From Convolutriloba macropyga (taxonomy: Eukaryota): a DNA stretch of 64,000 nt. Shown piece after piece: positions 32,193 to 62,397 of the stretch (position 1 is the first letter of the stretch; each line of letters opens with the position of its first letter). The stretch covers positions 35,464,001 through 35,528,000 of the forward strand of contig NC_134470.1 in the NCBI RefSeq assembly GCF_964194025.1. Reading direction: 5' to 3'. The translations under genes and the position numbers were made by a program. The notes below the pieces were generated by a model. The model worked only from the letters and a program-made list of their open reading frames with translations, did no database searches and was not told where the DNA came from.

Positions 32193-32373
32193 ATGGGGCC
32201 TGACCAAGGCAACATAGAGCTGGAAGTGACCTACTTCCGGTCCAACCAGGACTTCCTGGAGAACATGGACCTCCCCATGGAAATGAAGCTCAACTTTTCC
32301 CTGCCTCGCAATACCACATTGGGAGACGTCAGACTCAAAATTTCGAGGACTGCCAAACAGAGACATGACGAAG
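32193..32373 (+). CDS. TLN: Talin coding exon 1 (N-terminal F0; MGPDQGNIELEV...AKQRHDE)
   Basis: Acceptor tcttccAG at 32181-32182, ATG at 32193, donor GTtcgt at 32374. Phase 1 matches the next exon, and GC content is coding-like. Confidence 0.75.
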
Positions 32374-35300
32374 GTTCGTATTCTCGGGCTTTTATTTTGG
32401 GTCATAGTTTTTTCTTGCATACGATTCGCCTCATTTGTAGCGATCGAATTTTGGCTCTTGGTCGTACCATTAATTTTTCTGAAGATGAAATTCAGAGCAA
32501 TTATGACTGTCCTAGTACTTTGTTGAGCAATTGTCCACCTGAGTGATTTTAATTGCTCTCGTTTCAATTAAACGCATGCATTCGAATTAAACACCAAAGC
32601 TAACATTACAATTAGTCGATTTAGTCGGTAGTAGGGACGACTATCTCGCCTAATTCTGCTTCACTTTTGGAGCAAGGGTTAAAAGATTAGTATCATTTCA
32701 AGAAAGTCAGTACTGTCAATTTTAAAATGGCTTTGACCGAGGTTCATCCATTCATCATGTATTTGTTTTGCTAAACAAATTTGTTACAATTATATAAGTC
32801 CTGGGCTCGTTCTTATGGAATTTTACACGTGATCACTTTTCTGATGATGTTTTTGATTTTTTCCTGCTTAAAAACAGGATTAGAAGGTGAAGCCCGGAGG
32901 GTATTAAGCTGCGGAGCAGCTCTCTTACAGCATTACTAGTCTCTAATTGTACAATTCATCGAAGCTAGAAGACATAAATTATTAATGTGAAGAGCTATAC
33001 TTTCGGGGTTTAGGCCCCACTCTCCCCTCGCCGAGCCCTCCGCTCGGACTCCGCCCATGCCGTTTCTATTTCCCCTTCTAAAGTTTGCTACTACCGTTGG
33101 AGAGTAATTCACTGTGTTAGAGAATTTTGTTTTACTTCTGGCAGACTATTTTCGTAAATTTGTCTAGCGAGCAATATTGATTTTGATTATTTGTTAAAAA
33201 ATAAATTGCTCGTAGAAGCAAAAAAAGTACATTTGAATACTTAGTTTGCGCGCCTTATCTTCTCAAACTATTGAATTTTTCATACCTGCAAGCCGTGAAG
33301 CTTGAACACGACATCAATCTGAGGTGAACTACCATTCTTTCACAATGTTCAGCAATGTCAGTTAGTCGTCTGGCTATAGTATTTGTTTGTGGTCCGAAAT
33401 TGTAGCCAGACGTCTAAATCACCAAGAACCTCTCATCTTTCTTGAAAAGCTATATTCGGAAACTTCAATTCGTCTCTAGTTTGAGAAAAGTTGCGCCAAA
33501 TTTAGTATGCTTTTTAAGGCCAGTGAGAATAATTTAAGGCCAGTGAGTCTTGACCAGCTCTTACTGTTGCTTTGGTACTCAGAACATTGTGCTGCTTCCG
33601 TTATCAGCCTAGGAATGCATAGCGGCTGCTTCCGTTAATGCATAGCGGCATTTAGAAACTGGTTTTAGCCAAATTAGTGGAAGTGCTAAAAAAAATTTCC
33701 AGAGCGGAGTATCAAATTTTGAAAAATGCTCTTATATTTTCGATGCGTTTACCCTTTCTTTGGCAAATTCTGCCTTAGAAGTTTTCTATTACAGCTGATA
33801 AAATTAATTAAAGGGCGCTGCTTAAATGGAGTAAAAAGCAGGAATCACTTATATTTGTACTATAAATTTTGTTACGGTTTTGTGATCTTGTCGTTTTGTG
33901 ATCAAAATATAACCTGCTTCAAAATCTAGTTCAAAGAACAATTTAGTTGAGAGATACTTTTCTTCAAAATTGAATAGATCAATTTGGAAATATGGAAACC
34001 AAGTGCGCAACAACAACATAACTAGCCATAACAGTAATTGGATGCCAAAAACAATCCGGTTGCATATTCAAATATTACCTGCTCAGTTTAACGGCGTATT
34101 TAGATTTTTTTCAATCTTAGAAAAAATGTATGTAAAGAATATTACTGTTAAAATAACCATGGTTGAACTGCGGGTTCGTTTTGCTCATATCGACCCATTC
34201 TCCTCATTTATGTTAACGTTAATCAAAGATGACTGCTAATATTGAATTGATTTTCAAAAAAATTGAAGAGGTGTCGTTACGTCCTTAAATTGAATGCTCG
34301 GTTACTGTGGTCTGTTGAATCATAAGACTTAAAGAATCAGTTAAAATGAACAGTCTTTTTGATTGTCAGGTAAAACTAATCCAGAAAATTGCCATTAAAT
34401 TTGAGTTTCATAAATTTTGGATTATCGGAACTCATACCTAAGAGGTATAACCAAATCATCACGGGCAAATCGGCCCGATTTGTGTGTCTTTTGTTCGTCT
34501 TTCCTATGTCAATACATTGAAAATGTAACAATATCGCGAGAAATAAAAATCGGTCAAAAGGGAATTGCGCAACCCGAGTTCGCAAGTGTCCAAATTTTAG
34601 CAGCGGAATTGAGATAAAAGCTTTACATCCTATTTTTCGCGCGCTGTGTAGAACTTTAGTGCTCCGTTTAGGTATATCTTTTTCGCACTGAGCGTAACTC
34701 TATTCTGCATTGAATATATCTGTAATCCGCAATTGTGCCTTAATTAATGCGCTTTTGAATGTGTAAAAGTGGTTTGTTTTTTTTTTATTTGACAGCAATT
34801 AAGTTCACAATAGAGACAGCAATTTCGCTGATTTGGTAAAATGTCTAATATGAATTGAATACTTGTCTTCTTGCTTTTTTCAAATATTGAGTGATTTCAA
34901 TTTGAATTAAACAAATAACGTTCTTTCAATTGAAGTTTTTCAATATTTTTTGAGTTTATTGACAGGAGTCTATTGACAGATGAACACCAAGATAAAATAG
35001 AGGGAATTTTTGGTTAAAAAATGGTTTTGAACCGATTACTGTTTTCTTTTGTTTATTTTTATTACTGAGTGATTTTCAACGGAATTCAGCAAATGAAATT
35101 ATTCAATTGAGTTGATTCCATATACTTTGCATCTGTTTACAGGTGTCGATTGACAGGTTGATTGATTTTTTACTGAAAAATCCCTCTGTTCATCCCTAGC
35201 GATTATTGACACGTTGACAATCTGGCCACCTTAAAGCAAGAAATTATACCACGGCTAATGCATGAAACTATTTTAGATTGCTAAGGAAATTGAGAATTTT

Positions 35301-38300
35301 TGTGGACTTGTATCCATTGACAGGTGTCTATTGATTTACTGAAAAAACTATCTTTTTTAAAACTAAATTTGATATATATATAAAAATATTGATATAAAAT
35401 AAGATTTAAACTACGAGTTTCGAATTCTAGATGAATTTATACGAGTCCCAGATGTTAAGCTCACTTCTCTATGGTATAATTTTAAGCTTAAACCACTTAA
35501 ATGCTCAATTAATGAAGCTTTTAACCACTTTCATGCTCAATAAATGATAATTTACCTCTGCTTTGCAATGTGCTATCCAAAAAACGTTTTGCGGGCCCGA
35601 TTTAAATCAGCGGAGAGAAACAATTTGTGAGATAAGAGAAAGTCTATTATCGAGACGAATTTTTCTTTGAGGTAGCAACAAAACAAGGTTCTAATTTTGC
35701 CTGAAGTTGTTTAAAGCAATCTCCGACAGACCCTAGATTGCCTGATTTGAAGAAATATGTTAAAGAAAATTACAGATTGACATCAGAAAAACATCAGGAA
35801 AAACATTTTCTCTTGTTTTCTTCAGGAAGCTTCTGGTTGCGAAAGTGTGCTCTCCAAAAATTATGCTTCTTTACTACTTGCATCAATTTTAAAATGTTAT
35901 AAATTCAGATATTCTTGCTGCTGTTCTTCCATAGAAAGCATCGACTGGGATCAAATAGTTTTGTCGGTTGTGGAAAAACTGCAGTCTTTGAAAAATGGAT
36001 AAATGACCCGAAATCAGGCAAAAATGAGGCGGCAGTTGGTATTTAATTTTTTCAGAAACAGGAATTCGAAAAAAAATCTGAAAATTGCCTAAGGTTGTCA
36101 TGAAAATCACATTTTCCTCTTGATTTCAAAATTTAATCACCGATAAGCCCTTTTTTCTTTAAATAAAAAATTATGTACTTCTCAATTGCTACTATAGATT
36201 GTGAATGCGTGTAAGCTAGATGAAAAACTTCAAAAAATTTTTTATGCCTTTTTTTCAAAGAGAACAAAATATTACAACTGGATAAATATTTTGACTAAAA
36301 ATAATGCAGCATATTCTTTTTACCTGCTAGTTTTTCATTTTTTCAGAACAACTACTAACTGTTCACTTTGAACGAAATCCATAACTTTCCATAGTTAGTA
36401 ATCATCGATAGTTAGTAATGTTTTTTATATATTATTTATCACTGAAGAAGAAACGTTCAAGACTATTTTGAAAAGTGTATAAAATTCTATCACGAAATTA
36501 ATTTTTTAAACGTATATTGTCAGGAAACCGTCCCTCTAGCGTTCATTCTACTAGTTTTTGGTTTTGGGAGAATTGGATTTGAAAAACATTCTTTCCAAGA
36601 TTGGATACCAATGTCAATACCTATGCTGTAAGCTTAACTTTTTGCGTTTTAGAAAAACCACCGTATGAATAAGTGAGCTCGCAGGGTATAGTTTATGTAA
36701 TTTTTTGGCATAAACTTGATTAGGCAAGGTTTAATATCGTTATCAATCGCTCAGGCTGGTCATTTTTAAATTTCCAAATGTGATGATTTTTTAAAGCTGT
36801 TTTGTGTTTAGTTGAGAGGTTTGGACTGTTTGTGCCCAAGCAGCAGTTGGATCTAAGTGACATGGCGCCCAATAGGAACGAAGGTATCTGGTATGACTCC
36901 AGTCGAGACATCGAGAAGCTGGGCAGCCTTGTCTCTGGTCCAGGAGTCACAACTCTTCAGGTTACTTGAAAACGCCGTCAATTCTATCAAATTGCTTAGC
37001 ATGCTGTCATGTGGGTACCAAGCCTATCAAAAGCATAAATGGAATGAAGAATGAAAGAGCCCAATTTTGGTTAAGGGACTATCGGACATGATCTGATGTA
37101 ATAAGTTATGCTTTTATGCGCGCTATTTATCTTCCTCGTCGCTTAAATGTGCACAGTGTGCGGTGTTCCGCCTTCAGGTAATATTGAGTGTGTAGTGTTG
37201 GTGGTGCTGTGGACGGACGTCAGAGAAGCAAACTAATCAGCTTGCTTCACTGACGCCAGTGTTGGTGATGCTTCAAAAAAGACCCTTGAGTTATAGTTAC
37301 TTTGGCACGATATGCCTGGGCTACCCTTTGCCCACTGTTGTTCCTTGTCAACAGTTAAAACTTTCGTGAGATTTGCTTCACAAATCTTCTTTTGCTACCA
37401 TGAAAAAGTCATCCATTTCCTAACCATTCGATTACATCTATCTAATCAACATTATGACTTGGTGTTTCTTAAAGTTACAGTTTTTAGCACGTGCCTCCTG
37501 GTACACACAGGAAAGATTACATGAAGCGCAACCTACAATAGTTGATTTGTTTTAGCTTGAGTATAGAAGCCTCTATCGAACGATTACCATCAACCTGCCT
37601 TCTGGCCACCGCAAGATGGATGTTCGCGAGACACAGAAAGTAGGCGAGATTGTTCGCATGGTGTGCCAGAAAGAAGGCATAGTTGGAGACATAGTTGACG
37701 AGTATTCCATTATGGTGGAACCAGAGACACCCGCTGAGGGCCAGACTATGACCTTGGGTGGCACCAGGACATGGGGCAACATGACCACTATGGGCAAGAG
37801 TAAAACTATGGGAATGGGGACCCTGTCTCCCGACTTCAAAGGATCTCCCGGTGGTGAAAAGACACCTGTAGGTATCTAAAGGTTTTTAACGTATCTGATG
37901 TTATCACTTTGGCGAAAAATGCAAAAATATTTTTGTACTAATATTGTGACAAAAAAGTTGGACGAATCAAGGAGGTGTGGTTGTTATAATTTTGTTTTGT
38001 GTATCTTATTGAACCGAGTTGCCCAATTTTGGGCAAATATTGAGTGCAAGATGCGAGATTATGAGTTGCATCAAGACTTTCCTCCGGAAGCCTTCAATTC
38101 GAAGAGTAACCTATTTGATAATGCTATAGCAATTGAATTGAATGACTATTAACGAGACAATGATATCGCTAAATTGGCAAAAAAAATTGCTACAACTTTT
38201 TAGCCTGCGTTAAATTGATATCTTTGTTTGAAACTGTTATGATTGGAATACCAAATTGCTCTTGAACGAATTCTGAAGCAATTACTGTAATTTTTTAATG

Positions 38301-41300
38301 CAAAATTCTTGCTTGACCGTTTTGTTCTGGAACAATTCTTGGATTTCAATTATCGTGTGACTTTTTAACGCTTGATTTCTTGCTTTTTGCGTTACCTAAA
38401 TTGCTCTTATTCAGAAATTAAGTCTGTTAAAATAAGCGATTAGAAGATAACTGCATTGATATCCTAGGGGTTAGGGTACTTGGTCAGCCTTTATTGAGGC
38501 TACAATTATTGAGGCTAAAATTATCTAGGCTACAGCTCCATCTAAAAGAAATGGCCCTGCCTGTCGCTCGAGAGCAATTTGTTTAACGTTAGTTGGCTTA
38601 TGTTCTTAATCCGGAAACTCGGTGTGAATAACTAACTATTAATTTTCAGGCATCCAATTCGATGATGTCCAGAATAGTAAGCAGTTCACCCTATCACTTA
38701 CTCTACTTCCTTGACGAGTACTCCTTTACTACTACATGGCAATGGTCTCCTCTTATGAAGAGTTCACGAATCTATTTTGTGTTTAATAGCCGCCCTCATC
38801 TTCTCAGCCGGCTATTATAGCGCTCCTATTACAATTCAAAGAATTTTTACAGTTCAAAGAATTTGAATTGTGTTGGGACGCTGTCTTTTTTTAAGATCTG
38901 TTCACACATTTTCATGATTTTTGAAGTCAAATTGGAGTAGTGATTTTGGTCACGCCGAAACAGGAAGTGGAGCGAAAAAGCGAGTGGTTTTGCGGCGTGA
39001 AATTTTTTTCGCTCTAATTTTAAAGTAGAGAAAACGGTGTTTGAACAAAAATTCGGTTTCTCGGTAGCGGTTTTTTGTTCACATGCGGCAATTTCACTCT
39101 GATTTTTACTGTTTTTCGATTTTTTGGATCGGATTTTTTTTCTTGATGGTTTTCCCAATCCATTCACAGCTCATTCTAGGCCTAGTTTTTTGTTCGAATT
39201 AAATTTTCATTTCTCGCTAGTGGTTTTTTTGTTCACATGCGGCATTTTGACATTGATTTTCTGTTTTTTTCTTTTTTATCTGATTTTTTTAAAAATATTT
39301 TTCTCAATTCACTCATAGCCCATTCTAGGTCTAGTTTTTCTGTTTAGTCAATGAAAATTCTTTGAATTGTACGTCAGGACTTGTCCTGCGATGTTTTTTA
39401 CTTCGTCGAACAAAAAAAGGTTTCGCTTTACCTCATTTTGCCGCTTTTTCGACATTTTGCGTGAAATCTTTTTGACTTCTCTAGGCTAGTTTCTCTCTTC
39501 TCTAATTCTGCTAAAAGTGATTTTGAACATCAGTTACTCAGCAAAGCAATTCAAAATGAACAGAGTCAGTATAAAAAATTGAAGTCAGAAATAGAAACGG
39601 GATAAACCCATAAAGCCCAATTTTAGATGCCCGCTATTTGAACGTCGTTCCTATAAGTCTTAGTTACCATTGGTATTGATAGTAGCCCCTGTAGCCTCTC
39701 TCTAAGAAACAGAAGTACGTTATGTTCAACTAAGAAATGCCATCAAAATAAATCGGACTTAAAAAATGTTTTTGCACAAAAATCTTTTTTCAATATCTTC
39801 TATTCTTTCAATCCCAATCATGCTTATTGGAATCAACGGCGGCTATTTTCCGGCAATCTGCCGGGTATGTTTCTCCTTTTGTTGATCTAAGTTTTCTGAT
39901 CTTCGAATGATAGAATTATAGATCCTATAGCTGTCATGAGTCATTAATGAGCTTTTTGCCTTGTGATCAAAGTTAATTTGAGAACTGAAAGTGTAGGCTC
40001 ATTTTCGGTTACTAAGTTTGCGTTCTTGGTTTTAACTTGTCTCGGAATTTATTGGTTGCTGTGCAGACTTGCAGTACTCCAGATCCTATCGCAAATAAGC
40101 ATATTTCAAAAGGAGAATTTATAAACATAACTAGTGCGAATCGAGACTAATAAAATCAAGATGAATTTTTTATCAGCTTGAAGTATCCTTTCCTCTGCAT
40201 GTGATATGCTGTCTGCAAATTAAAGATTGAGACCGTATGAATAATTTACCATAGAAAAATTTGATGTCAGCAATTTCTTGTGAAATCCAGTGATACTACT
40301 ATAAGATTTTTACTTCGTTATATTTTTGGATATGGAATATTTATGTGGATGTAAAAAAATTATAAGGTTAACAAAGATTTCGTAGTTTCTGGAAATGGAA
40401 GATTCAGTGTAGCCCTTAACAAATTTTTGTATCGACGTTTTACTTCATTTAGTCCTTGTGGAGCTTGAGTCAAATAGCATGCTGATTTGACGATAAGAAG
40501 TGCATTGCAGCGTTCGTGTAGAACAGCGGAAAATAGTTGTTTTTGTACTTTGGCATTCTGTAATTTTAGGCGACAATTGGTCGAAATGCTAAGAAAATGG
40601 AAAAACTGAAGAAGAAACTGAGAACAGATGATGAGATTCTGTGGCTGGACCACTCCAAGAGTCTACATGACCATACCAATATTGACCTGGATACTGTTAA
40701 GCTCACATTCAGAAGGAAGTTCTTCTTCTCCGATGTGAATGTGACCGAGACTGATCCCGTACAACTGTCCCTTCTTTACAAACAGGTTAACTGCTCATTA
40801 TTCTAATTGTGAACAATTTGGGCTGATTAATAGCCGCGTCAGCAATTCCAGGCGGCTATTATAGCGCTCCTATTTTTTTACAATTCAAAGAATTTGAATT
40901 GTATTGGTGCGCTGTGTTTTTTTTAAAGATCTGTTCACACATTTTTCAATGACTTTGATCTTTCAAAACGGGATAAACAGGTAAAGCCCAGCGGGCATTA
41001 AGTTTCATTAGAAGCCCAAAGTTGGCTTTAGTAGTCCTTCAAGTGCTTATAGTGGTGCAGCTGCTGGGATGGCCTTAATTTAAGGTTAAAAGGTCATTTT
41101 TAGGAGTTTTTGGGCTCAAAATGGTGCAATTTTTCACGTTTTTTTGTGATTTTTTGTGAGTTTTTTGTTTGATTAGTCTCAGGTTGAAGTTTTTAAAAAT
41201 TGATGAAGGCTTTTTGTGAGACAGAATTGCTTGTTATGACCATTTTATGAGCTATATGTTTTGATACTACAAACACTAACACACACAAAATGATACTAAT

Positions 41301-44300: not shown

Positions 44301-47300
44301 TTGTTACTATTATTATTGAGTTCCCGTTTTTTGAAGCTGAAGATTGTAAAGGATTGTTGGATTGTAAAGATTTTTTTTCAACTCGCTGAAAAGTTATGAG
44401 GATCTTTGAATCCCTATGGTTGCTGTAAAAATCACAGCAGCATGACATCAAATTCCTCATTTGTTGCAAAACAAAGTTTGAAAACGAAGAGAACTGACAG
44501 TAGTACATTTATTCATGACAGCTTTGGTGTAAGAAAGTTTTGCCCAGCGGGCAAAAACTTTGTTCAAAGCATTTTTGTATCTAATTATTTCAGCTGAAGT
44601 GGTTTGTTTAGCACATATTAATAAAGAATTGGAAGCAGGTTTAGCTGATTTTGCTTTAAAGAGACATTATGAAGAACAACTGGTGAAAATTGGAGACAAT
44701 TTTGTCTCGTTGATAATGTAATTCAGCTAATCGAATTAATTATTGTAGTTAATGCAAACACAATTGTTCCATCTTCCAGTATTGTTCTTTTCTGAAAAAA
44801 ATCTTATGGCTACGAATAAGTTGAAATGAGACGTGATTCAATGAATACAGGTTATTTAAATCCTCTTTTTAGTTGATGAGTTTGGGTTCGTTTTTGGGTT
44901 GTTTAGAAAAAACATAAACATATGTAAATTAAATTTTTTGATTTATACAGCTAAGTTTACCAAGGTTTTTGTCCGTGATGTTCATCCTGAGGCAAAAAAG
45001 AGCATGTTAAAAGACAGTTATCTAGAATTGCAAACCTGAAACCAATTTGACAATGATTTATAGACAAACACGGCTGAAACAATTTTAAAACCGCCAATAA
45101 TGCAAATAGAATTGGAACTTAAACGTTTGAGGAAAACTCTTTTTGATAAAAACATTTTTGGTGCAGCTTGATAATAACGTTTTTTGGTGCTAAAACAAAT
45201 GTTTCGGCGATACCATTTCAGATATATCGATATATCTTATGCTTCCCAATGCAAATGTGGGATCATTCTGTGCCACGCACATAACAAGCGAACTTCTTGT
45301 TCTAATTTCTTCACACTTGTAATCTTCATCCTGTTCAAAGTAAAGAACACCAAGTAAGTACTAGAGCCTTAACGAAAACTTTCCCAAAGTCATTAACAAA
45401 GTATCAAAAACAAACGCAGTTTTGTGTCATTGAATTTTGTACTTTAGACTTCAGAAGCCATTACCAAATCAGCACATCCTGTATCAGAAGAAACTGCCAT
45501 TGAACTGGCGGCTCTTGCAGCTATCAGCGAGAACGGGCTAATTGATGCGCCAGTAAAGGAGATGAGTGCCCAGTACAAGTCGTACCTACCCGAGGAATAC
45601 CGAAAAGTGAGCAAAATTGACAAGCGAATTGACCAGGCAAGAATTAAGTACATCGATCAGATCAAGGCTGAAATTGAGTCCAATGATGCCAGCGCTGCAA
45701 ATAACCAAAACGATTTGGAGTTCATAGAAAAGGCTGAGCGAAAAGCGACGAAGAAATACATTGACAAATGCAGAGCTTTGAAGACATTTGGCTATCGGTT
45801 CTACTTAGTGAAAGAAAAGATGAAGAACAAAAACAAACTGGTTCCAGTGCTCCTAGGAGTGAACAAAGACGGAATTGTGACTGCGGATGCTGTGAACAAA
45901 GAAGTCACAAAGATGTTCTATTTACATCAGATTAAACAACATTTTTGCACAGATGCTTCTTTTCACATTACCTTGCCCGGGTACCAAGCGGAAGATTACG
46001 TTGTACAGACGAATGAGGGAAAGAACATTGTGAAACTGCTGGAGGGATACATCGAGATCCACTTGCAAAAGGTACTTTTTACACAGCCGTTATTTTAAGC
46101 GGAATATCACGAATGGTTTGATTGGATAAATAATTGGTGAAATTATGGGGTCAACCTGTAATAACTTCGGTTATAATATGTACAACGTTTTTCAATAATG
46201 TACCCATAATTTTTTGAGAGCGTCAAGCAATGCGTTGTCTGGAGTTGCTTTTCGTATTTTTTTTGAAAAAGTAACTGAGAATTTTCTGTGTAATTGGTGT
46301 ATGGATATGTTAAGATGAGGAAGCGGGAGAGGTTGAACAACCAGAACACGGAGAATACAATTCAAGAGGAGAACATTGACTCTAAGCAGGCACAGACGTT
46401 CCAGATTGGAGGGGATGTGTCTCAAAGAGGGGGAAACTTGGGAGGGTACCACGGCATGGCTGTGCCGCAGGTCATGAGGCAAGGAGACGCTAAGCAAGTA
46501 AGTTCAAGATTTTAATTTGTTTTACCCCGCGCTTCAACTTTTATTGGATGTGAGAAGCAATTTATATCTTTTATCCTGCTCGCGTTGTGGTAAATGGGCG
46601 AGTTAAATGTTTTAAGTGGAACGAAATGTTACTAATTTTTTATGGGTCTTTGACAGGAGCTTGAAGAAAAGTGATCGTATTCAATGAAGCTTTGAATTGC
46701 TTAGGTGACAATAAACAGAATTGACTGGGGTGCCAAGAAAGCGAAAGTTGGCACCTACTTTGATGAAGGGGTAAGAAGAGTAGCAGAGGTTGAGGATGAC
46801 CTCCTCGAGTCCCAGAGAGGCTATATTCTCTCGAACGAAGCTGCTGACATGAATGCAGCAGTTGCTGGTCTTAGGGCCAACGAGTACCTGAGTAACATTA
46901 CTCATTTAGCTGTCCAAATGCTGGTTCCAGAAAACGAAAACCAACTTCAGTACTCGTTATCCACTGTGTCCAAAGACCTGAAAGCGTTCTCAGAAGCGAT
47001 AAAGATTCTGGCATCGCAGCTTGAGGATCCAGAGAAACGGAACCTGATTGACAGCGCAGTTGAACTGACAAATGCTTTCGGAGATTTGCTAAGACTAGCT
47101 CATCCGGGAAGTGAGGCGACAGCCGAGCAGTTGCACGACGCAGCACAGAAGATTGCAGAGAAGGCACAGAATATTGTAGACCAGTTGGACCAATTTATTG
47201 TGATCGGATCTGGAGCGGCTAATAGTCAGGTAAACATGTTTCCCATTTTTAAGAAATGTATCACTGAGTGACCTCGGTTACCCAGCGATGATATTGGTTA

Positions 47301-48358
47301 CTCAATAACAGCTTTGGATACCATGAAGGCAGATGTTGGGGGTAGCTGATACCCTCGCAATTGAATTCCGTACATATTGATTGAAATCTCAAATGAAGCC
47401 TGGAATTTCTGGATTTGGATTAAAGTTGCTTTCACTGAAACCTGAGCCAGTATGGCTAAATGGTTGTTCATCAGTAAGTTGCATTTATCCAAAATTTTGG
47501 TGTATTTTGTTCTCGGTTTGTAAACACTGGAAGGTGTAGTTTTGCATTTCTATGCAGTATAAAATTTGACGAGTGATCAAAATTTGAATTTAGATTCTGC
47601 TGAACCTGGTTCAAGAAGTGTTGAGCAAAGTGGAGGCTCTGACCAATAAAGCTGGTGAAATAGCATTTACTTCCGGTGTTGAGCAGAAGGCACAAGAACA
47701 AATCATGCTCAGCAAAGGTAGCCTTGAAGGAGCCTCGCTCAACCTGAAAAGTGTCGCCCATTTATTAGCCCCGGTTGCTGCAAACGATCCAATGAGCAAA
47801 CAGCAGCTGTCACGTGCGACCGATAACGTTGTGAAGAAGGTCAGGGATGTTGTCAATAATGTGCAACCTAACTGTCCCGATACAGAAGCAGTTAATGAAG
47901 TTCTCAGCATGTCACATCAATTGCACAACGATTTGGGCAATCTAGGCAGCTTTATTCACACTCTTGGAACTGGCGACCAGAGCAACGCTTCGAGCCAGTT
48001 CAGTCAAATTAACGCTCTTATGCAGAAAGTGAGATACAACATGGACAAACAAGACCAAGAGGCTACTATCAATGCTCTGAAGCATTTGATGGTATCTTGC
48101 AATTACTTGATCAAACAAGCTAAAGAAGACGCCGGTAATCCAAATGTTGATGAGGATCAGAAGCACTCGATAATAGCTGCTGCTCATGGATTGACTGGAG
48201 CTATGCGAACGTTGTTAGCCGACATCAAGGCGTACCAAACTGACGGTGGGAAACCTCTATCCAGAGAAGAAGTGTTGGCCATTCTCAAAAGTGTCCAGGA
48301 TCAAGTCAATGAGTTATGCAAAGAAGATGCTATGAGAGATGTCTTCATGAAATTGGAG
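32193..48358 (+). CDS. TLN: Talin-like protein, 5' part (F0-F1-F2-F3, neck, rod R1-R3, start of R4); exons 32193-32373, 36812-36960, 37556-37867, 38650-38676, 40570-40785, 45448-46071, 46315-46497, 46705-47229, 47594-48358; probably continues beyond the window
   Basis: All introns are GT-AG and the phases agree (1, then all 0), giving 994 open codons. Talin signatures: FGLF..GIWY (F0), DEYSI, KKMEKLKKKLRTDDEILWLD, RRKFFFSDVNV..DPVQLSLLYKQ, HPVS, LKTFG.FYLVKEKMKNKNKLVP.LLG, VQTNEG..I..LL.GYIEI, then helical-bundle rod sequence. Confidence 0.93.
36812..36960 (+). CDS. TLN: Talin exon 2 (F0; VERFGLFVPK...EGIWYDSSRDIEKLG...TLQ), missed by the ORF track
   Basis: gtgtttAG acceptor and GTtact donor. 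The translation matches the talin F0 pattern FGLF...GIW. Confidence 0.85.
37556..37867 (+). CDS. TLN: Talin exon 3 (end of F0, F1 and first part of the F1 loop)
   Basis: ttgttttAG acceptor; LEYRSLYRTITINLP...VGEIVRMVCQKEGI...DEYSI; donor GTaggt at 37868 (phase 0). Confidence 0.9.
38650..38676 (+). CDS. TLN: Predicted 27-nt symmetric microexon in the talin F1 loop (ASNSMMSRI)
   Basis: Branch-point-like actaac (38631-38636), aattttcAG acceptor, 9 open codons and GTaagc donor. Phase 0/0 fits between exon 3 and the 40570 exon. Confidence 0.6.
38783..39871 (+). mobile_element. Family B copy in a talin intron
   Basis: ttAATAGCCGC head; GCGGCTATT-tt-CCGGCAatcTGCCGG-gtatgtt tail; body matches 22390-22930. 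Confidence 0.7.
40570..40785 (+). CDS. TLN: Talin exon (end of F1 loop, F1/F2 junction)
   Basis: aattttAG acceptor; ATIGRNAKKMEKLKKKLRTDDEILWLDH...RRKFFFSD...DPVQLSLLYKQ; GTtaac donor. Confidence 0.95.
40827..42447 (+). mobile_element. Family B copy with substituted interior, in a talin intron
   Basis: Intact ttAATAGCCGCG...GCGGCTATT head and CGCGGCTATTttCCGGCAatcTGCCGGctatgtt tail. Confidence 0.7.
42652..44204 (+). mobile_element. Family B copy with degenerate termini
   Basis: Body matches the other B copies (gaagtcaaattggag.agtgattttggtca.gccgaaa); tail remnant atctgccagctatgtt. Confidence 0.55.
45448..46071 (+). CDS. TLN: Talin exon (F2 and PTB-like F3)
   Basis: actttAG acceptor; TSEAITKSAHPVSEETAIELAA...KEKMKNKNKLVP...GYIEIHLQK; GTactt donor. 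Confidence 0.95.
46315..46497 (+). CDS. TLN: Talin exon (head-rod neck)
   Basis: Weak tgttaAG acceptor and strong GTaagt donor. TIQEENIDSKQA...HGMAVPQVMRQG resembles the talin neck (TMLEDSVSPKK...HGSVALPAIMRSG). Confidence 0.8.
46705..47229 (+). CDS. TLN: Talin exon (rod R1)
   Basis: gcttAG acceptor and GTaaac donor; amphipathic helices including LIDSAVELTNAFGDLLRLAHPGS. Confidence 0.9.
47594..48358 (+). CDS. TLN: Talin exon (rod R2, R3, start of R4)
   Basis: gaatttAG acceptor and GTgagt donor; 255 open codons of helical-bundle sequence. Confidence 0.9.
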
Positions 48359-55670: not shown

Positions 55671-55732
55671 TTGCATTCCCAGCCCACCCAGATCATCACC
55701 TTTAATTTCATTGAGTTCAGTTTTAAACTAAG

Positions 55733-56954
55733 ATGGCCGATAACGCCCAAATAACAGTAGAACCCTATAGAGGAGCCGAAAATCAAAGTTTCCGCCAATT
55801 CCGCGGCGGAAACTTTGATTTTCCGAGGTTTCATCGGTGTCGCAGCAATTCCGAGGTTTCATCGGTGTCGCAGCAATCCCTGTTAACCAACAATCAAATT
55901 TTCTGCAACTCCACCTCCAAGACGCCGCGTTACGATATTTTCAAACGTTGCCTGAAGCAACCAGAAATGATCTTGAATTAAGCCTCACAGCACTCAGGGA
56001 CCACTTCGCGAATCAAGATCTTCAAGAGGTACATGTTCTTAAATTAGAACAGCTGCGATTTGACCCAAAAACAGACAGCCCCGAAAACTTCCTACTGAAC
56101 TTACAAACAAAGGCCCAGCGTGCCTACCCAACGCCAAATCTGCCAGCAGTTGCAGCATTAGCGCTCCAGGAGATGGAGGAGCAGGGGATAGAGCAGAGCA
56201 CGCACGCTTCGATGGAGAAACAGCCGTACGAGCTGTAAGATTGCAAGCAGCAGAGGACAACAAGAACGAACAAGTTAAGCGAATCTTCATAAAAGCCATT
56301 CCGGGATGGCTGCGATCAAAATTGATGGAACAACCACCAGCCACGCTAGTTACCGACCTCTGCACCATTGCTCGACAACAGATGACAATCAGAGACATGT
56401 GCAGAAAAGATGACTATCCTGAAGATGGGTTCAATGAAATCAATAACGCCGTGTCCGAAAACCTGATAAATGCGCTCTCTAAATTGAATCAGAGGCAAGA
56501 TTCATTAGACAAAAAGCTTTAAACAATTGACGACCGCATCACGGCGACACATATAGAAACAACAACACAAAAAGATGTAACTCACTCTCCCCAGCAATCA
56601 TTTAATAGACCGGGGCAATTCACCGCGGCGCCCTACACGCCTAGAAATAACTATGCAAGTCAAATGTATCAGAACTCTTACAGAGGAATTAATCTTAGAG
56701 GCCGAAACTTCTTTAATAGAAATCCGAGACCCCGTTTCCCAATCACTAATGCTCAAGTGTTTTATCCTCGAAATTTAATACCTCAGTCACAACCCCGCAT
56801 GCCCACCAGCCCATATATGACTGGGACTAGATCCAGCGGTACCTTCTGTTATACATGTCGTTATCCAAATCACCGATCAGGTCAATGTTCTCAGAGAGGT
56901 AGAACTAATAATAGAGGAACCTCATTTCCATATAATAGCCAATGAAAAAACTAA
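55733..56954 (+). pseudogene. gag (frameshifted, with stops)
   Basis: Fragments MADNAQITVEPYRG, LQLHLQDAALRYFQTLP, VKRIFIKAIPGWLRSKL and the zinc knuckle CYTCRYPNHRSGQC (CX2CX4HX4C). Confidence 0.85.
56945..56951 (+). promoter_or_regulatory. -1 ribosomal frameshift heptamer A_AAA_AAC at the gag-pol junction
   Basis: The heptamer is in the gag frame and directly followed by TAA; the protease ORF (56993) is in the -1 frame. Confidence 0.7.
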
Positions 56955-59900
56955 TAATGCCACCCTTAACGCCCAAAAGTCGCTGACAGTCCATGAAATC
57001 TTTAGAGCAGCCTAGCAAACTATTTAATCTTTACAATATAAACCCTAATATGAGATCATCCCTTCTCCCCTATGTCAAAATTAAATTTAATAACGGAATA
57101 AGCCGTCGAGCACTAATTGACACCGGCGCTTTTGCAAATTTCATAAGCAACAGATTACTCCAACAAATTACCGGAACTGACAAAAACGCAGTCAAATTGG
57201 AGCAACCAGATTGTACTTCAGTCAAAATGGCTGGAGGACAACTAGTCAGAATAGAGACAGGCCGAAATTAAATTTAAACTCGCTAACAGAGTTTGTCGAA
57301 GACTTCCTTGTCCTTTCCTCTACAAACTCGGTCATCCTTGGTAACCCCTTCTTTATCAAGCATGATATTTCAATTAGCCCAAAACAAGCTCTTATTCAAT
57401 TCCCCGATTTGACAGTTCAAATTAATGAAATCAAGCCTGCAAACGAAAAACGACCAGCAGTAAGACATAAGAAGCTTCCCATTTACACAATCAAGAAGCA
57501 CACAATACAGCCCAGCACAGCACAGCAAGTTCTCCTGGAATGCTATCTATCAGATAAAACCGATCAGTTTGAGAACAAAAGTGGAGTAATCGCTCCTAAT
57601 GAAATTCTCGAAGAAGAAACACAGATTGCACTAACTTCTTCGCTAAGTACTGTACGAAAGAATAATATATTGTACGTCTCTGCCCTAAACGTAACTGAGA
57701 ACCCTATCACAATCAACAGCCGAAAAGAGGTAGGCAGATTCTCAATCCTTTCAACCGAGCAAGCCGACCAATTGATACAAATTGACCCACAACTGATAAC
57801 GCTAGCAAAATCAAGAAACAAAGATGACTATTTTGCGGAATTGAACCAGCTTATCCAAGATTTCGCCCAGCACAAACCAGGCCAAACTAGGAGACATCCA
57901 CCGGAATATAATAAACTATGGTTTCCGACACCAGAAACTTGCGAGGACCCATGTAATTTGCCGTTGCTACAGCAAGAAATTTACGACCAAATATTAAATT
58001 TCCAAAAATTGGAGAAGATTGATCCACGAAGTAATGAAGAAGACCGTAAATTCTTTCTCAGTAAATTCAACTGGGACAGTTCGCCATTAAATCAGAAGCA
58101 AATTGAAGAATGCGAGCACTTATTAATTGAATATTGTGACATTTTCGCCAAACACCGGTTTGACGTCGGATACAATATGGAACTGAAAATAAAGCAAACT
58201 CCAGAGCTTGACTTACCTGTATATGTACAAGGACCACCAACCCCAATCTATCTACGCGAAGAACTCCATATTGAATTAGCATTAATGCACTACTATGGAC
58301 TTGTAACAACTTTGTCACAGTCTAAATACAGTAGTCCATTCTTTGCTCATAGAAAAGAGTCAGGCAAACTGAGAATTTTAATTGATCTGAGAAGAGTCAA
58401 CCACCTACTAAAAAATGACTACCACGGCACAAACATTCCAATCTCAAACATGGCTGATGCAACCAGGTATTTTGCAGGAAAAACATTGTTCACAAAACTT
58501 GACTGCTCGCAAGCTTATCATTGCGTACACATGGCGGACGACACCTCAGTACAACTTTTAGCTTTCAATTTCTCATCAAGAACTTAAGCGTACAAATGTT
58601 TAGCTCAAGGACTTAGCAAATCAGTTACCGGTTTTAGCTCATTCTTTTGCCATTATCTAGACGCTTGTTTAGCAGCCGGCATATGCACACAATTCATGGA
58701 CGATATTGGGAGTGCAGTAACAGAATTTAGTCAGATACTTCCTAGTCTAAGGAAATTTTTCGATTGCATCCGGAGATCTGGACTGAAATTGTCACCAGAA
58801 AAATGCGAAATAGCCTCACAGTCAATCAAATTACTGGGCAGTACAATTACAAATGAGGGAATATCCCTAGAAGCAGAGAAAATCAAAAAGTTTTTAAAGA
58901 AGATTTCGATGCCAAGAACAACCAAACAGGTCAAAAGACTAATTGGCTTCGCTCAGTTCTTCAGAAATTTTATCCCAAATTTAGGCGAGAAGCTTATACC
59001 GTTTTATCAATTGTTACGTAAGGGAGCCGATTTTAAAGCGAAAGAAACCCATTACAATGCATTCGAAACTGTGAAAAATGATTTACTTGAAGCAACAGAG
59101 ATGACGCTCAGATTACCTAAACCTGGCCTACAATATGTCCTCCTCTGTGACGCAAGCTACTACGGAGCCGGATTTGTGCTTATGGTTGAAGACTACGTGA
59201 CAGGAAAACAGTCAAAGGAAAAGAAAGTCTACGCTCCAGTATCTTTTGGATCACAACTCTTCACGACAGCACAGCTGACGTTTTCAACTTATTACAAAGA
59301 ATTCTTAGCACTTTTTTTGCATTAGACCAGTTTTCCCACTACATCTGGGCATCCAGTCATTCAGTTTTTGTACTCACGGATAATCGAAGTTTAACGCATT
59401 TCTTTCAGTCAAAAACCATTCCTCCATCACTGGAACTTTTTGGACCGAGTTCTTTCGTTTAACATAGTTATTGCCCATATTCCCGGAAAAACTAACTATG
59501 CAGCAGATTTTCTCTCACGCGTACAGACAGATAAAGGAGCCAGCCTGTCCCTTAAAATAACGGACAAAGTACCAGTCCGTGAAATATATGTTGAATCTGC
59601 TGAACCAGATGAACCAAATATATGTTGAACCAAATGAACACGGCCCCTGAACCAGAGATGGAAGAAGTTACCATCGTCTCACAACTACGGGAACTCGGAC
59701 TTTACGACGCGTATATTGAACGAAAACGAGAGAATGGAGATGAAATAAGTTCAAGCGTGCGGAAGTTAACGCAAAACAATATGCGAACCAAGCTGATCTT
59801 CTGAACGATTTGACGGATAGAGAAGAAATATTAGATTTGGCGAGTGAGCAGACAAAAGGCGAAGAGATCATGCATGCAATTGAGTGGAAACGCAAGGGCC

Positions 59901-61350
59901 TAAATAGAGACTTGAAGTATGCATCCCGACTATTGAAGAAATACGTGAAACAGTTTAACCATTGGGAAATTGAAAACAACACATTATACAGACAATTCTT
60001 TGATGACACAGGCAAAAGATTTTTCAAGCAATACTGCCTGCCAAAGCATCTCTGGAAGGAAGTAATCTATAGACTACACAACTCACCAACAGGAGGACAT
60101 TTGGGAACACTTCGCACAATTCAAGAATTCCGAAAACGATTTTACTATCCTGGTTTTACTGAACATTTCATCGATTTCATCAACAATTGCATTACATGCC
60201 TACAGCTCAAGCAAACAACGAATAAACAACTGCAACCACCATTACAGTCTGTATCTTCACTACAGTCATTCCCCGGAGAAATGATGCAAATTGACTTAGT
60301 TGAACAAAAAGGCCCAATTTACAAATTTGTTTTTATTGGAATTGTTTACGAAGTACTTGTTTGCAGTGCCACTGACAAATGGTAGTGCCGACACAGTTGC
60401 CAGAGAGCTTGTGAAGATTTTCTGCCAGCATAGTTACTTGCCTAGTACATTACTGAGTGATTTAGGAACAAATTTCACCTCAAAACTAATGGCTGAGTTA
60501 ACGAAGTTACTCGAAGTTAAACTGAAACTTGCTATGCTGAAACACCCACAGACAATTGGAGTAGTGGAACGCTCACAGGCAGCACTTAAATGGATCCTTA
60601 AACTCAATTCCAATGAACAGTGGAATGATTGGCACAAATATGTACCGCTTGCAATCTTTATACACAATACATCGTATCATTCTTCAATTAATTGTTGGCC
60701 GACAACTCTATTTCATGGACGTGAACCTATTAAACCCTTGATCTCCGTTTTTCCACACGAGCAATGCAAGAAGTTGAAGTCAGTTCAGATTACGTTTCGC
60801 AGCTACAAGACGCAATGCTTCGAAAATTTGGCTAAAACAAACAAAGACGTTTAGATTCCTACCAGCGATACAGAAGTGACTATGATCAAAAAGCTGAAGC
60901 ACAGCCACTCAAATTGCATTCACCTTGTCTACTAATAAACCCTCGTCTAACAAGGAAAAACGATTTTACACAGAAAGCAGTTAAAACATGGCTATCACTC
61001 TATAGAGTCGAAAAAGTCCTAACAAATTCAAATTATATTATTAGAAAAACAGGAACAAATTATAGTCAATGTGTTCACCGGTTCAGGCTAAGACCTATCA
61101 ATCTGACAGAGCCACCAGACGATATACAGGAAATTGATCCTGCGAAGTTCGAAGCGGATCCGTTGAGAAGAACAACTCGAAATGAGCCAGAATTATTTGA
61201 GTACATTCCAAATTTATTAGAGGAGGAGCAAAGTACCGCATTTCAAAGACTGTAACAGTTCAACCTTCGCAAATACGCCTCGGCGTAATTGTTCCTCTAA
61301 ATGGAGCCCCTGCAATGCCATTGGTTGCACCAGTACCTCCGATAGTGCCG

Positions 61351-61393
61351 GTAATACCGCCAATACCCGTAATACCGCCAATACCCGTAATAC
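61351..61393 (+). repeat. 18-bp coding tandem repeat (VIPPIP) in the post-integrase linker
   Basis: gtaataccgccaataccc repeated ~2.4 times. Confidence 0.8.
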
Positions 61394-61949
61394 CAGCGGA
61401 AATCAGAACACCTTCGCCAATGAATTCGCCAAGAAATTCGCAAGAAAATTCACCCCGAGAGTTTTGCAACACCCGAAGAACTTCAGTATCCTGAAAGCCC
61501 CCCCCCCCCCCCCCCGCCCCCCGGAGCCGCTGAGAGCGAGAGAATTACAGCACATGACGAAGAAGATACAGAACAACAACCGGGACCAAGTACTCGAAGC
61601 AATCAAAACAGAGTTAACTTTGCAAAAATGCGAGGAGTCGGAAAATTTGAATCTTGGGAACTTGTAGCACGCTGCGGTTCACGTTCTCAAATGCCACGAC
61701 TGCCCGAATCTCCCACACAGCCACCTATCTTAACAAAAGAACAAAAACACCAAATAATTACAGAATCATCGCGCAGATCAAGAACGGATAAAACTCCAAC
61801 TAGAGAAACGAAACTAGACCAAGTCCGATCTAGCATTGAGAGATACCAACGAGGCTCAACTGATGAGAACAGAGGAATAACCCAAAGCCAGTCAAAGAGC
61901 AAACAAACGACTTCAAACATAAATGTAATTGAAATTGGAAAAACCAGAG

Positions 61950-62397
61950 CCAAATTCTTCCATCATAGAGGTGATCTTCTTAACTCCAGATGCTCTTTTG
62001 CACATTGCATATCAAGTGATATGAATATGAGTAAAGGCCTCGCTCGGCAACTTGTCACCTACTACCCCGAAATGCTGCAAAGTCAAGAATTCGCGCAAAA
62101 ACCACCAACAGTTTCCGTTATCTCAAGTTATGAAACGACTTTAAATCGATATATCTTCAACCTGGTCACGAAAGAGAACTACTATGATAAACCTACTTAT
62201 TACAACCTCTCAGTTGCTCTTCACACACACTACGATTTGTTATATTGAAGCACAGCATATGCTCTAATAATTTACCAAAACTCTGATGTGGTCTCGATCA
62301 ACTTTCAGAAAAAAGTGTTTTACGACAGATTATTGAAGTATTTTCGGATGTTCCAGTAAAAATTCACCTATACAAGTATAACACGGCCAGAAAGTGA
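61950..62397 (+). pseudogene. TARG1/OARD1 (Poa1p-like, DarG-related) macrodomain at the end of pol
   Basis: HRGDLL...FAHCISSDMNMSKGLA...RYIFNLVTKENYYDKPTY. After a shift at the (CA)n run near 62222 it continues LRFVILKH...LPKL*CGLDQL...IIEVFSDVPVKIHLY. Confidence 0.85.

Follow-up and report, generated by a model that had tools for sequence, protein, structure and literature searches.

An altered integrin-binding site 1 in the talin of the acoel Convolutriloba macropyga and absence of the corresponding tryptophan from the two β-integrin tails found

The DNA analyzed here (the window) is a stretch of 64,000 nucleotides from contig NC_134470.1 of the Convolutriloba macropyga assembly (positions 35,464,001 to 35,528,000), and positions given without a contig name are those of the window. 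Its forward strand carries a talin gene from F0 to rod R3. The exons are given below, where L073 denotes a metagenome contig with a collinear talin gene.

32193..32384 (ends approximate), plus strand: probable first coding exon with a putative start, divergent F0; 56–60% to L073, no Pfam match.
36812..36960 (ends approximate), plus strand: exon with the remainder of F0; tblastx matches to L073 of 66% and 91% (two pieces), preceded by AG.
37556..37870 (3′ end approximate), plus strand: exon with the start of F1 and the F1 loop; talin profile 22 bits, 62% to L073.
40570..40785, plus strand: exon with the end of F1 and the start of F2; talin profile 83 bits, 60% to talin-1, 84% to L073.
45448..46071, plus strand: exon with F2 and F3; Pfam FERM_M and IRS, matches to talins in the PDB, AG/GT ends, phase 0, no stop, pLDDT 90.9.
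46315..46497, plus strand: exon with the head–rod linker; AG/GT ends, phase 0, 53% to L073.
46705..47229, plus strand: exon with the end of the linker and rod R1; Pfam Talin_middle (E 1.1e-9), AG/GT ends, phase 0.
47594..48358, plus strand: exon with rod R2–R3; Pfam Talin_IBS2B, AG/GT ends, phase 0.

The AG/GT ends and phase 0 were confirmed at the four exons from F2 to R3, and F0 was assigned by its position and the match to L073. The gene extends ~193 kb beyond 48358, to the I/LWEQ domain and the dimerization helix on contig C3 at 35.70 Mb, outside the window. Two I/LWEQ exons above the Pfam cut-off, ~194 kb downstream on the same strand, were aligned to talin-1 2396–2532. With a profile of 26 talins and 190 kb of neighboring sequence, all segments above 3 bits (23/23) occurred in protein order from F1 to the C terminus. 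The gene therefore contains a FERM head with a PTB-like F3, a helical rod, and the I/LWEQ domain with the dimerization helix, in the same domain order as the metazoan talins (TLN1, TLN2, fly Rhea, and worm TLN-1; PDB IDs: 3G9W, 1MK7, and 6VGU). The mapped segments span 1676 of 2541 talin-1 positions; roughly one third of the protein lies outside the mapped exons, with not every rod bundle seen. Identity to talin-1 is 11–60% per mapped segment, and the IBS2 helix is among the best-preserved rod pieces (46% across 24 residues).

In the L073 contig (positions 1–3040), the exons from F0 to R2 are packed into 3 kb, versus 16 kb in the window; the introns are expanded and the exon order is unchanged. 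A Ty3/gypsy-type LTR retroelement with matches to reverse transcriptase, RNase H, and integrase is located in a talin intron (55700–62300, plus strand), and the copy is broken, as these matches sit in several separate frames. Just beyond it, two overlapping open frames were found (L012:2417–3522, plus strand), in the first of which a hydrophobic stretch comes after a basic cleavage-like site. They might represent an envelope-like gene, an identity for which the Pfam search of these frames gave no support.

The F2–F3 region is predicted to fold as a talin. The model obtained with a 27-sequence alignment had a pLDDT of 90.9, a confidence that derives partly from the canonical rows, and the pLDDT was 44 with a two-sequence alignment only. 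In a Foldseek search with the F2–F3 model, all listed rows above rank 27 were talins, and atlas searches returned generic FERM/PTB clusters and, for the β-integrin tail, nothing informative. F2 has an insertion of about 20 residues (45630–45745), which is modeled as extended helices and is shorter in L073.

The F3 part of the exon matches the PDB chains of talin-1 and talin-2 without gaps, the best being talin-2 (E 9.8e-28). In the numbering of bird talin-1 (2541 amino acids), Q358, H359, F360, and D377 replace Arg, Trp, Ala, and Tyr, and M319, K322, K324, L325, S365, and Q381 are kept. The four substitutions had been proposed in a first-pass annotation of this DNA and were borne out by the gap-free alignment to solved talins; the preserved residues that it named agreed with the column counts. 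The sites concerned are as follows.

45820..45840, plus strand: basic loop M319–L325, kept except for G321N and identical in L073; contact for the membrane and the membrane-proximal helix.
45937..45945, plus strand: codons 358–360, Gln, His, and Phe for Arg, Trp, and Ala; His, His, and Phe in L073.
45994..45996, plus strand: codon 377, Asp for Tyr; also Asp in L073, via a different codon.

Position 359 was Trp in 120/120 full-length reference talins (one hydrozoan homologue and 119 among the matches listed, 120 of 148), and position 358 was Arg in 113/120 and Gln in 1/120, whereas Phe at 360 and Asp at 377 each occurred in 0/120. This set spans choanoflagellate, Trichoplax, cnidarians, nematodes, rotifers, arthropods, tunicates, amphioxus, and vertebrates; it was gathered via words shared with the hydrozoan talin and is biased accordingly, with no flatworm or acoel among the listed names. 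The possibility, raised in the first-pass annotation, that the same residues are widespread in functional talins did not hold for these 120 references, among which H359, F360, and D377 are absent. When the columns at least 90% conserved in 44 nonredundant references were considered, 23 of 55 in the F3 region were altered in the acoel talin, further examples being R328V, R339T, E342A, T367H, D369T, G371P, S379V, and I399H. Judged from the aligned sequences, the four reported substitutions are part of this broader change of F3. An assembly error does not account for them, because an independent contig spanning 45440–46201 has no differences from the assembly and no listed variant from four DNA runs hits codons 358–360 or 377. 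As to the side facing the membrane, K322, K324, S365, S379, and Q381, which we take to be membrane-proximal or lipid contacts, and L325 are kept in five of six cases, S379 being replaced by Val. The basic loop is preserved, and the earlier description of this protein as a membrane-binding talin is consistent with that.

In the solved structures, A360 and Y377 presumably line the Trp pocket, and positions 367 and 379 presumably lie on the same sheet face as this pocket. The available parts of PMC8931153 and PMC12237089 do not show A360 and Y377 completing it. R358 is described as a part of the pocket for β3 W739 that stacks on the Trp ring (PMC2958305, PMC4003243, PMC12988159). The first-pass annotation had assigned R358, W359, A360, and Y377 to an NPxY pocket, but according to the accessible text of these papers R358 serves the Trp upstream and not NPxY itself. 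The NPx pocket is reported to consist of L353, I396, I399, and L400, with charge contacts by K357 and R358 (PMC4003243). Three of these four pocket residues (L353, I396, and L400) are kept in the acoel F3, in which I399 is replaced by His, and K357 is also kept. W359 is described as mainly structural and, together with I396, as touching β3 residues 740–742, and L325 is reported as a membrane-proximal contact (PMC2958305). According to the same source, R358A loses binding and W359A leaves some binding in vitro, W359A is the more severe in cells, and R358A largely rescues endothelial cells (PMC2958305). The worm mutant TLN-1 W387A (equivalent to W359) is reported as nearly wild type in a paper whose available text also cites a lost interaction (PMC9850256). 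The earlier statement that W359A abolishes binding was thus too strong, although a loss of interaction has indeed been cited. In both the acoel and L073, the Trp-docking features of the canonical integrin-binding site 1 (the R358 pocket and W359) are absent, with Gln or His at 358, H359, F360, and D377. On sequence grounds, the protein is a genuine talin whose integrin-binding site 1 is non-canonical, and it is not filed under the canonical Trp-docking type.

The L073 contig was the one relative found in a scan of metagenome contigs, and scans of genome contigs and viral contigs gave none. Its F3 shares 90% protein and 78% DNA identity with that of the acoel (pS 0.83, pN 0.064; silent sites near-saturated) and is the best-conserved stretch between the two species, most other head and rod pieces being at 53–86%. 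L073 has H358, H359, F360, C361, H367, and D377, and all of these except H358 are shared with the acoel across synonymous codon changes. The substitutions I399 to His and S379 to Val are also found in both species. Identical residues occur at 21 of the 23 derived conserved columns, and the two species have different residues at positions 354, 358, and 369 (358 being Gln in the acoel). Given the 21 of 23 identical residues and pN far below pS, the rebuilt F3 is an old, constrained trait of the lineage. As a separate observation, His or Cys residues were gained at 359, 361, 367, and 399 of F3 (45937–46062) in both species, and these residues might serve in pH sensing or metal binding.

Could the gene be a pseudogene or an assembly artifact? 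The unmapped third of the protein would be in keeping with this, but the frames are open without stops or frameshifts, the splice sites are canonical, independent contigs carry the same codons, and the pN is far below the pS against L073. Moreover, 10/10 coding variants in the F2–F3 and R1 exons from the four DNA runs are silent, versus 22% silent among the possible single changes. The gene is intact, as the first-pass annotation had held, and under purifying selection, and a decayed or misassembled copy is hardly credible. This selection and the splice sites hint indirectly that the gene may be expressed.

The annotation had also treated the gene as a paralog, and a second, canonical talin was therefore of interest. 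None was found in searches of the species' own genome with F3 and with the IRS, Talin_middle, Talin_IBS2B, and I/LWEQ profiles, which score the top candidates in an assembly of 4694 contigs. The F3 query gave two matches, the talin itself and, weakly and at 28%, a myosin-like FERM gene. The IRS profile gave three (talin, the myosin-like FERM gene, and a DOK/IRS-like frame), Talin_middle gave one, and Talin_IBS2B gave two, both within the talin gene. Of the six I/LWEQ matches, three were above the cut-off: two talin exons and one at ~2.37 Mb of C3, which was read as HIP1/Sla2 because ANTH exons precede it on the same strand. The paralog framing is hence not borne out. A canonical, integrin-binding talin hidden beside a divergent one is very unlikely. 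It could have escaped insofar as only top candidates are scored and the completeness of the genome is not given, but its scores with the IRS, Talin_middle, IBS2B, and I/LWEQ profiles would be far higher than those of the present talin, and no such match was seen. In addition, one talin is reported to be usual in invertebrates (PMC6032930), and the integrin tails described below do not themselves offer the Trp to which a canonical F3 binds.

The tail Trp is conserved in fly and worm. Among the human β subunits compared in the available text of PMC12988159, it is conserved except in β5, which has Tyr. Two β-integrin loci were found in the acoel genome, on contigs C4 and C16, each recovered with the vWA profile as well as with the tail profile. 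One β-integrin exon of this genome is 100% identical, across 95% of the query, to a C. macropyga record. Both tails align without gaps to β1 and β3. They have an acidic residue where D723 stands, retain E726, and have aromatic residues at F727 and F730; their first motifs are NPMF and NPFY. The membrane-proximal helix and NPx(Y/F) are likewise preserved in P0122, the third tail compared below. Inspection of the β tails, which had been suggested in the first-pass annotation, revealed that they are unusual at the matching position. Val occupies the position of β3 W739, eight residues before the aromatic residue of the first NPx(Y/F), in 3/3 tails, including that of P0122, a 66% identical β-integrin orthologue from another record, and no Trp lies upstream of the NPx(Y/F) motif in any of the three. 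The three Val tails may stem from one ancestral change, and if they were one event, the match between talin and tail would be one coincidence in a long-branch lineage. For an α-integrin, no match was obtained with one profile, which was also silent in every control, so that this result carries no weight as to an absence.

The second β-tail motif is the usual kindlin-binding motif. In the C4 β-integrin this motif ends in His instead of Tyr (NPAH, L003:1500–1690; NPSH in P0122) and is followed by a basic extension. The metal-site motifs are also atypical in comparison with the canonical ones given in the accessible part of PMC2397394: the C4 β-integrin (L031:1273–1755) has DxTxS for DxSxS, and the C16 β-integrin (L034:1396–1767) is without both ADMIDAS aspartates.

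Here, we propose how the acoel talin and its integrins may work together. The parts of talin that were lost face the parts of the tail that were lost, and the parts of talin that were kept face the parts of the tail that were kept. Because the talin pocket and the integrin Trp have both disappeared, the old adhesion contact was likely rebuilt on both partners rather than abandoned. We consider it somewhat more likely than not that the sole talin found still links β-integrins to actin, via an interface that has changed on both sides. F3 would still bind the membrane and the membrane-proximal helix and would still take the NPx(Y/F) turn, and the Trp–Arg stack would have been replaced by a smaller hydrophobic contact. 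F360, together with H367 and V379, may occupy part of the emptied pocket, where it would pack against the smaller tail Val, and the aromatic ring would in effect have shifted from the integrin to talin. Tentatively, such a ring swap at the oldest contact of the integrin adhesome (tail Trp to Val and talin Ala360 to Phe) could constitute a natural orthogonal talin–integrin pair, in which the own partner is bound and the canonical ones are not, possibly with a different mode of integrin activation. The first-pass annotation had left a choice between a talin that is integrin-independent through its head and one that co-evolved with an unusual β tail or another receptor. The former fits poorly, because talin and the tails both retain most of the residues that serve the membrane-proximal helix and NPx(Y/F), and an unusual tail was in fact found, with Val for Trp.

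The main competing explanation, which we regard as somewhat unlikely, is loss without compensation: the Trp–Arg contact decayed on both sides in a fast lineage with little matrix. F3–tail binding would then be weak, recruitment would depend mainly on lipids, kindlin, and IBS2, and the new F3 residues would be kept for folding or autoinhibition and not for gripping the tail. In line with this, F3 is not more diverged than the remainder of this fast-evolving talin. Conserved sites were lost at 21/51 positions in F3 versus 85/211 in the rest of the protein (p = 1.0; one misaligned rod segment was excluded from the counts). The variation at 354, 358, and 369 between the two species fits a relaxed old pocket, and the IBS2 helix is well kept. 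His at 399 of the NPx pocket and Val at 379, present in both species, also weigh against a rebuilt contact. Published observations, taken from the accessible portions of the papers, point the same way. Trp-to-Ala tails are reported to form few focal adhesions, but interaction with talin is still possible and adhesions form when talin is overexpressed (PMC12988159); acoels are described as long-branched and as having no basal lamina (PMC3789126); and fly talin is reported to work partly via IBS2 (PMC4386027). The last finding, together with the mild worm W387A, implies that loss of the pocket needs no compensation. The rescue of endothelial cells by R358A also fits this explanation. On the other hand, simple decay does not readily explain why F3 is the piece best conserved between the two species, why H359, F360, C361, H367, and D377 were held while their codons changed silently, or why two very divergent β paralogues have the same small residue, Val.

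The changed contact could also have been turned to another use, with a rebuilt β5–β7 surface of F3 binding a non-integrin receptor or adaptor and integrins reached via IBS2 or kindlin. The stretch 352–381 is mildly enriched for lost conserved sites (11/17, p = 0.04, or 10/16, p = 0.07, in another count), a result to be read with the fact that this stretch was picked post hoc from data already seen. A whole stretch that was rebuilt and then fixed would suit a re-targeted head, and the absence of a basal lamina described in the available part of PMC3789126 could free the head for other work. However, the membrane-proximal contacts and three of the four NPx-pocket residues are kept in F3, both tails keep NPx(Y/F) and the helix, and no candidate ligand was identified. 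We therefore judge re-targeting to be quite improbable and retain a contact with β-integrins rebuilt on both sides as the preferred explanation.

Compared with metazoan talins, the acoel protein is alike in the predicted F2–F3 fold, the basic loop, L325, S365, Q381, most NPx-pocket residues, the IBS2 helix, and an apparently single copy. It is different in that R358, W359, A360, T367, D369, G371, Y377, S379, and I399 are replaced, in the F2 insertion, in the low identity per mapped segment, and in having partner tails without Trp. In integrin β5 the pivotal Trp has likewise been replaced in nature, a difference reported to alter talin engagement and the type of adhesion (PMC12988159). The β5 residue is still aromatic and its talin is unaltered, whereas the acoel has Val in both β-integrins found and a rebuilt talin. 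In the engineered mutants (talin-1 R358A and W359A and worm TLN-1 W387A), the same residues were removed and function was partly retained, according to the accessible text of PMC2958305 and PMC9850256. Those are single changes made in the laboratory while the integrin stayed the same; in the acoel, several sites have changed naturally, the changes are fixed, and a second species has them too.

The docking of talin to integrins is older than animals, as NPx(Y/F) tails of Capsaspora are reported to recruit human talin (PMC6450878), and every talin of the reference set used here, from choanoflagellate to bird, has W359. A free-living animal whose sole detected talin lacks the pocket, with a matching loss in both β-integrins found, offers a natural experiment that can show which contacts adhesion and activation require. 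The case is relevant to two questions: why one mutation can be severe in mammalian cells but mild in worms, and how tissues hold together in acoels, which have little matrix. If the talin–tail pair is truly matched, it could serve as an orthogonal tool. Two points limit this interest: fast divergence is general among acoel proteins, and the compensation is one that we propose. Prior work on acoel talin was not found in a literature search, from which subscription journals were mostly outside the scope, and no report on acoel integrins was found by title or by the start of the abstract.

As to other adhesion components, a kindlin N-terminal exon and two collagen IV loci were found in the genome, in keeping with the preferred explanation. 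A motif scan of 200 kb around this N-terminal exon did not reveal the exon for kindlin F3. The two collagen IV loci are on separate contigs (C6 at 47.68 Mb and C7 at 37.49 Mb), not head to head, and they occur in a group for which a basal lamina is described as absent (PMC3789126). An intronless actin-family gene (L050:6599–7993, plus strand; Pfam Actin, E 1.4e-126), Arp1-like by appearance, is located ~1 kb upstream of the kindlin exon, perhaps within a kindlin intron.
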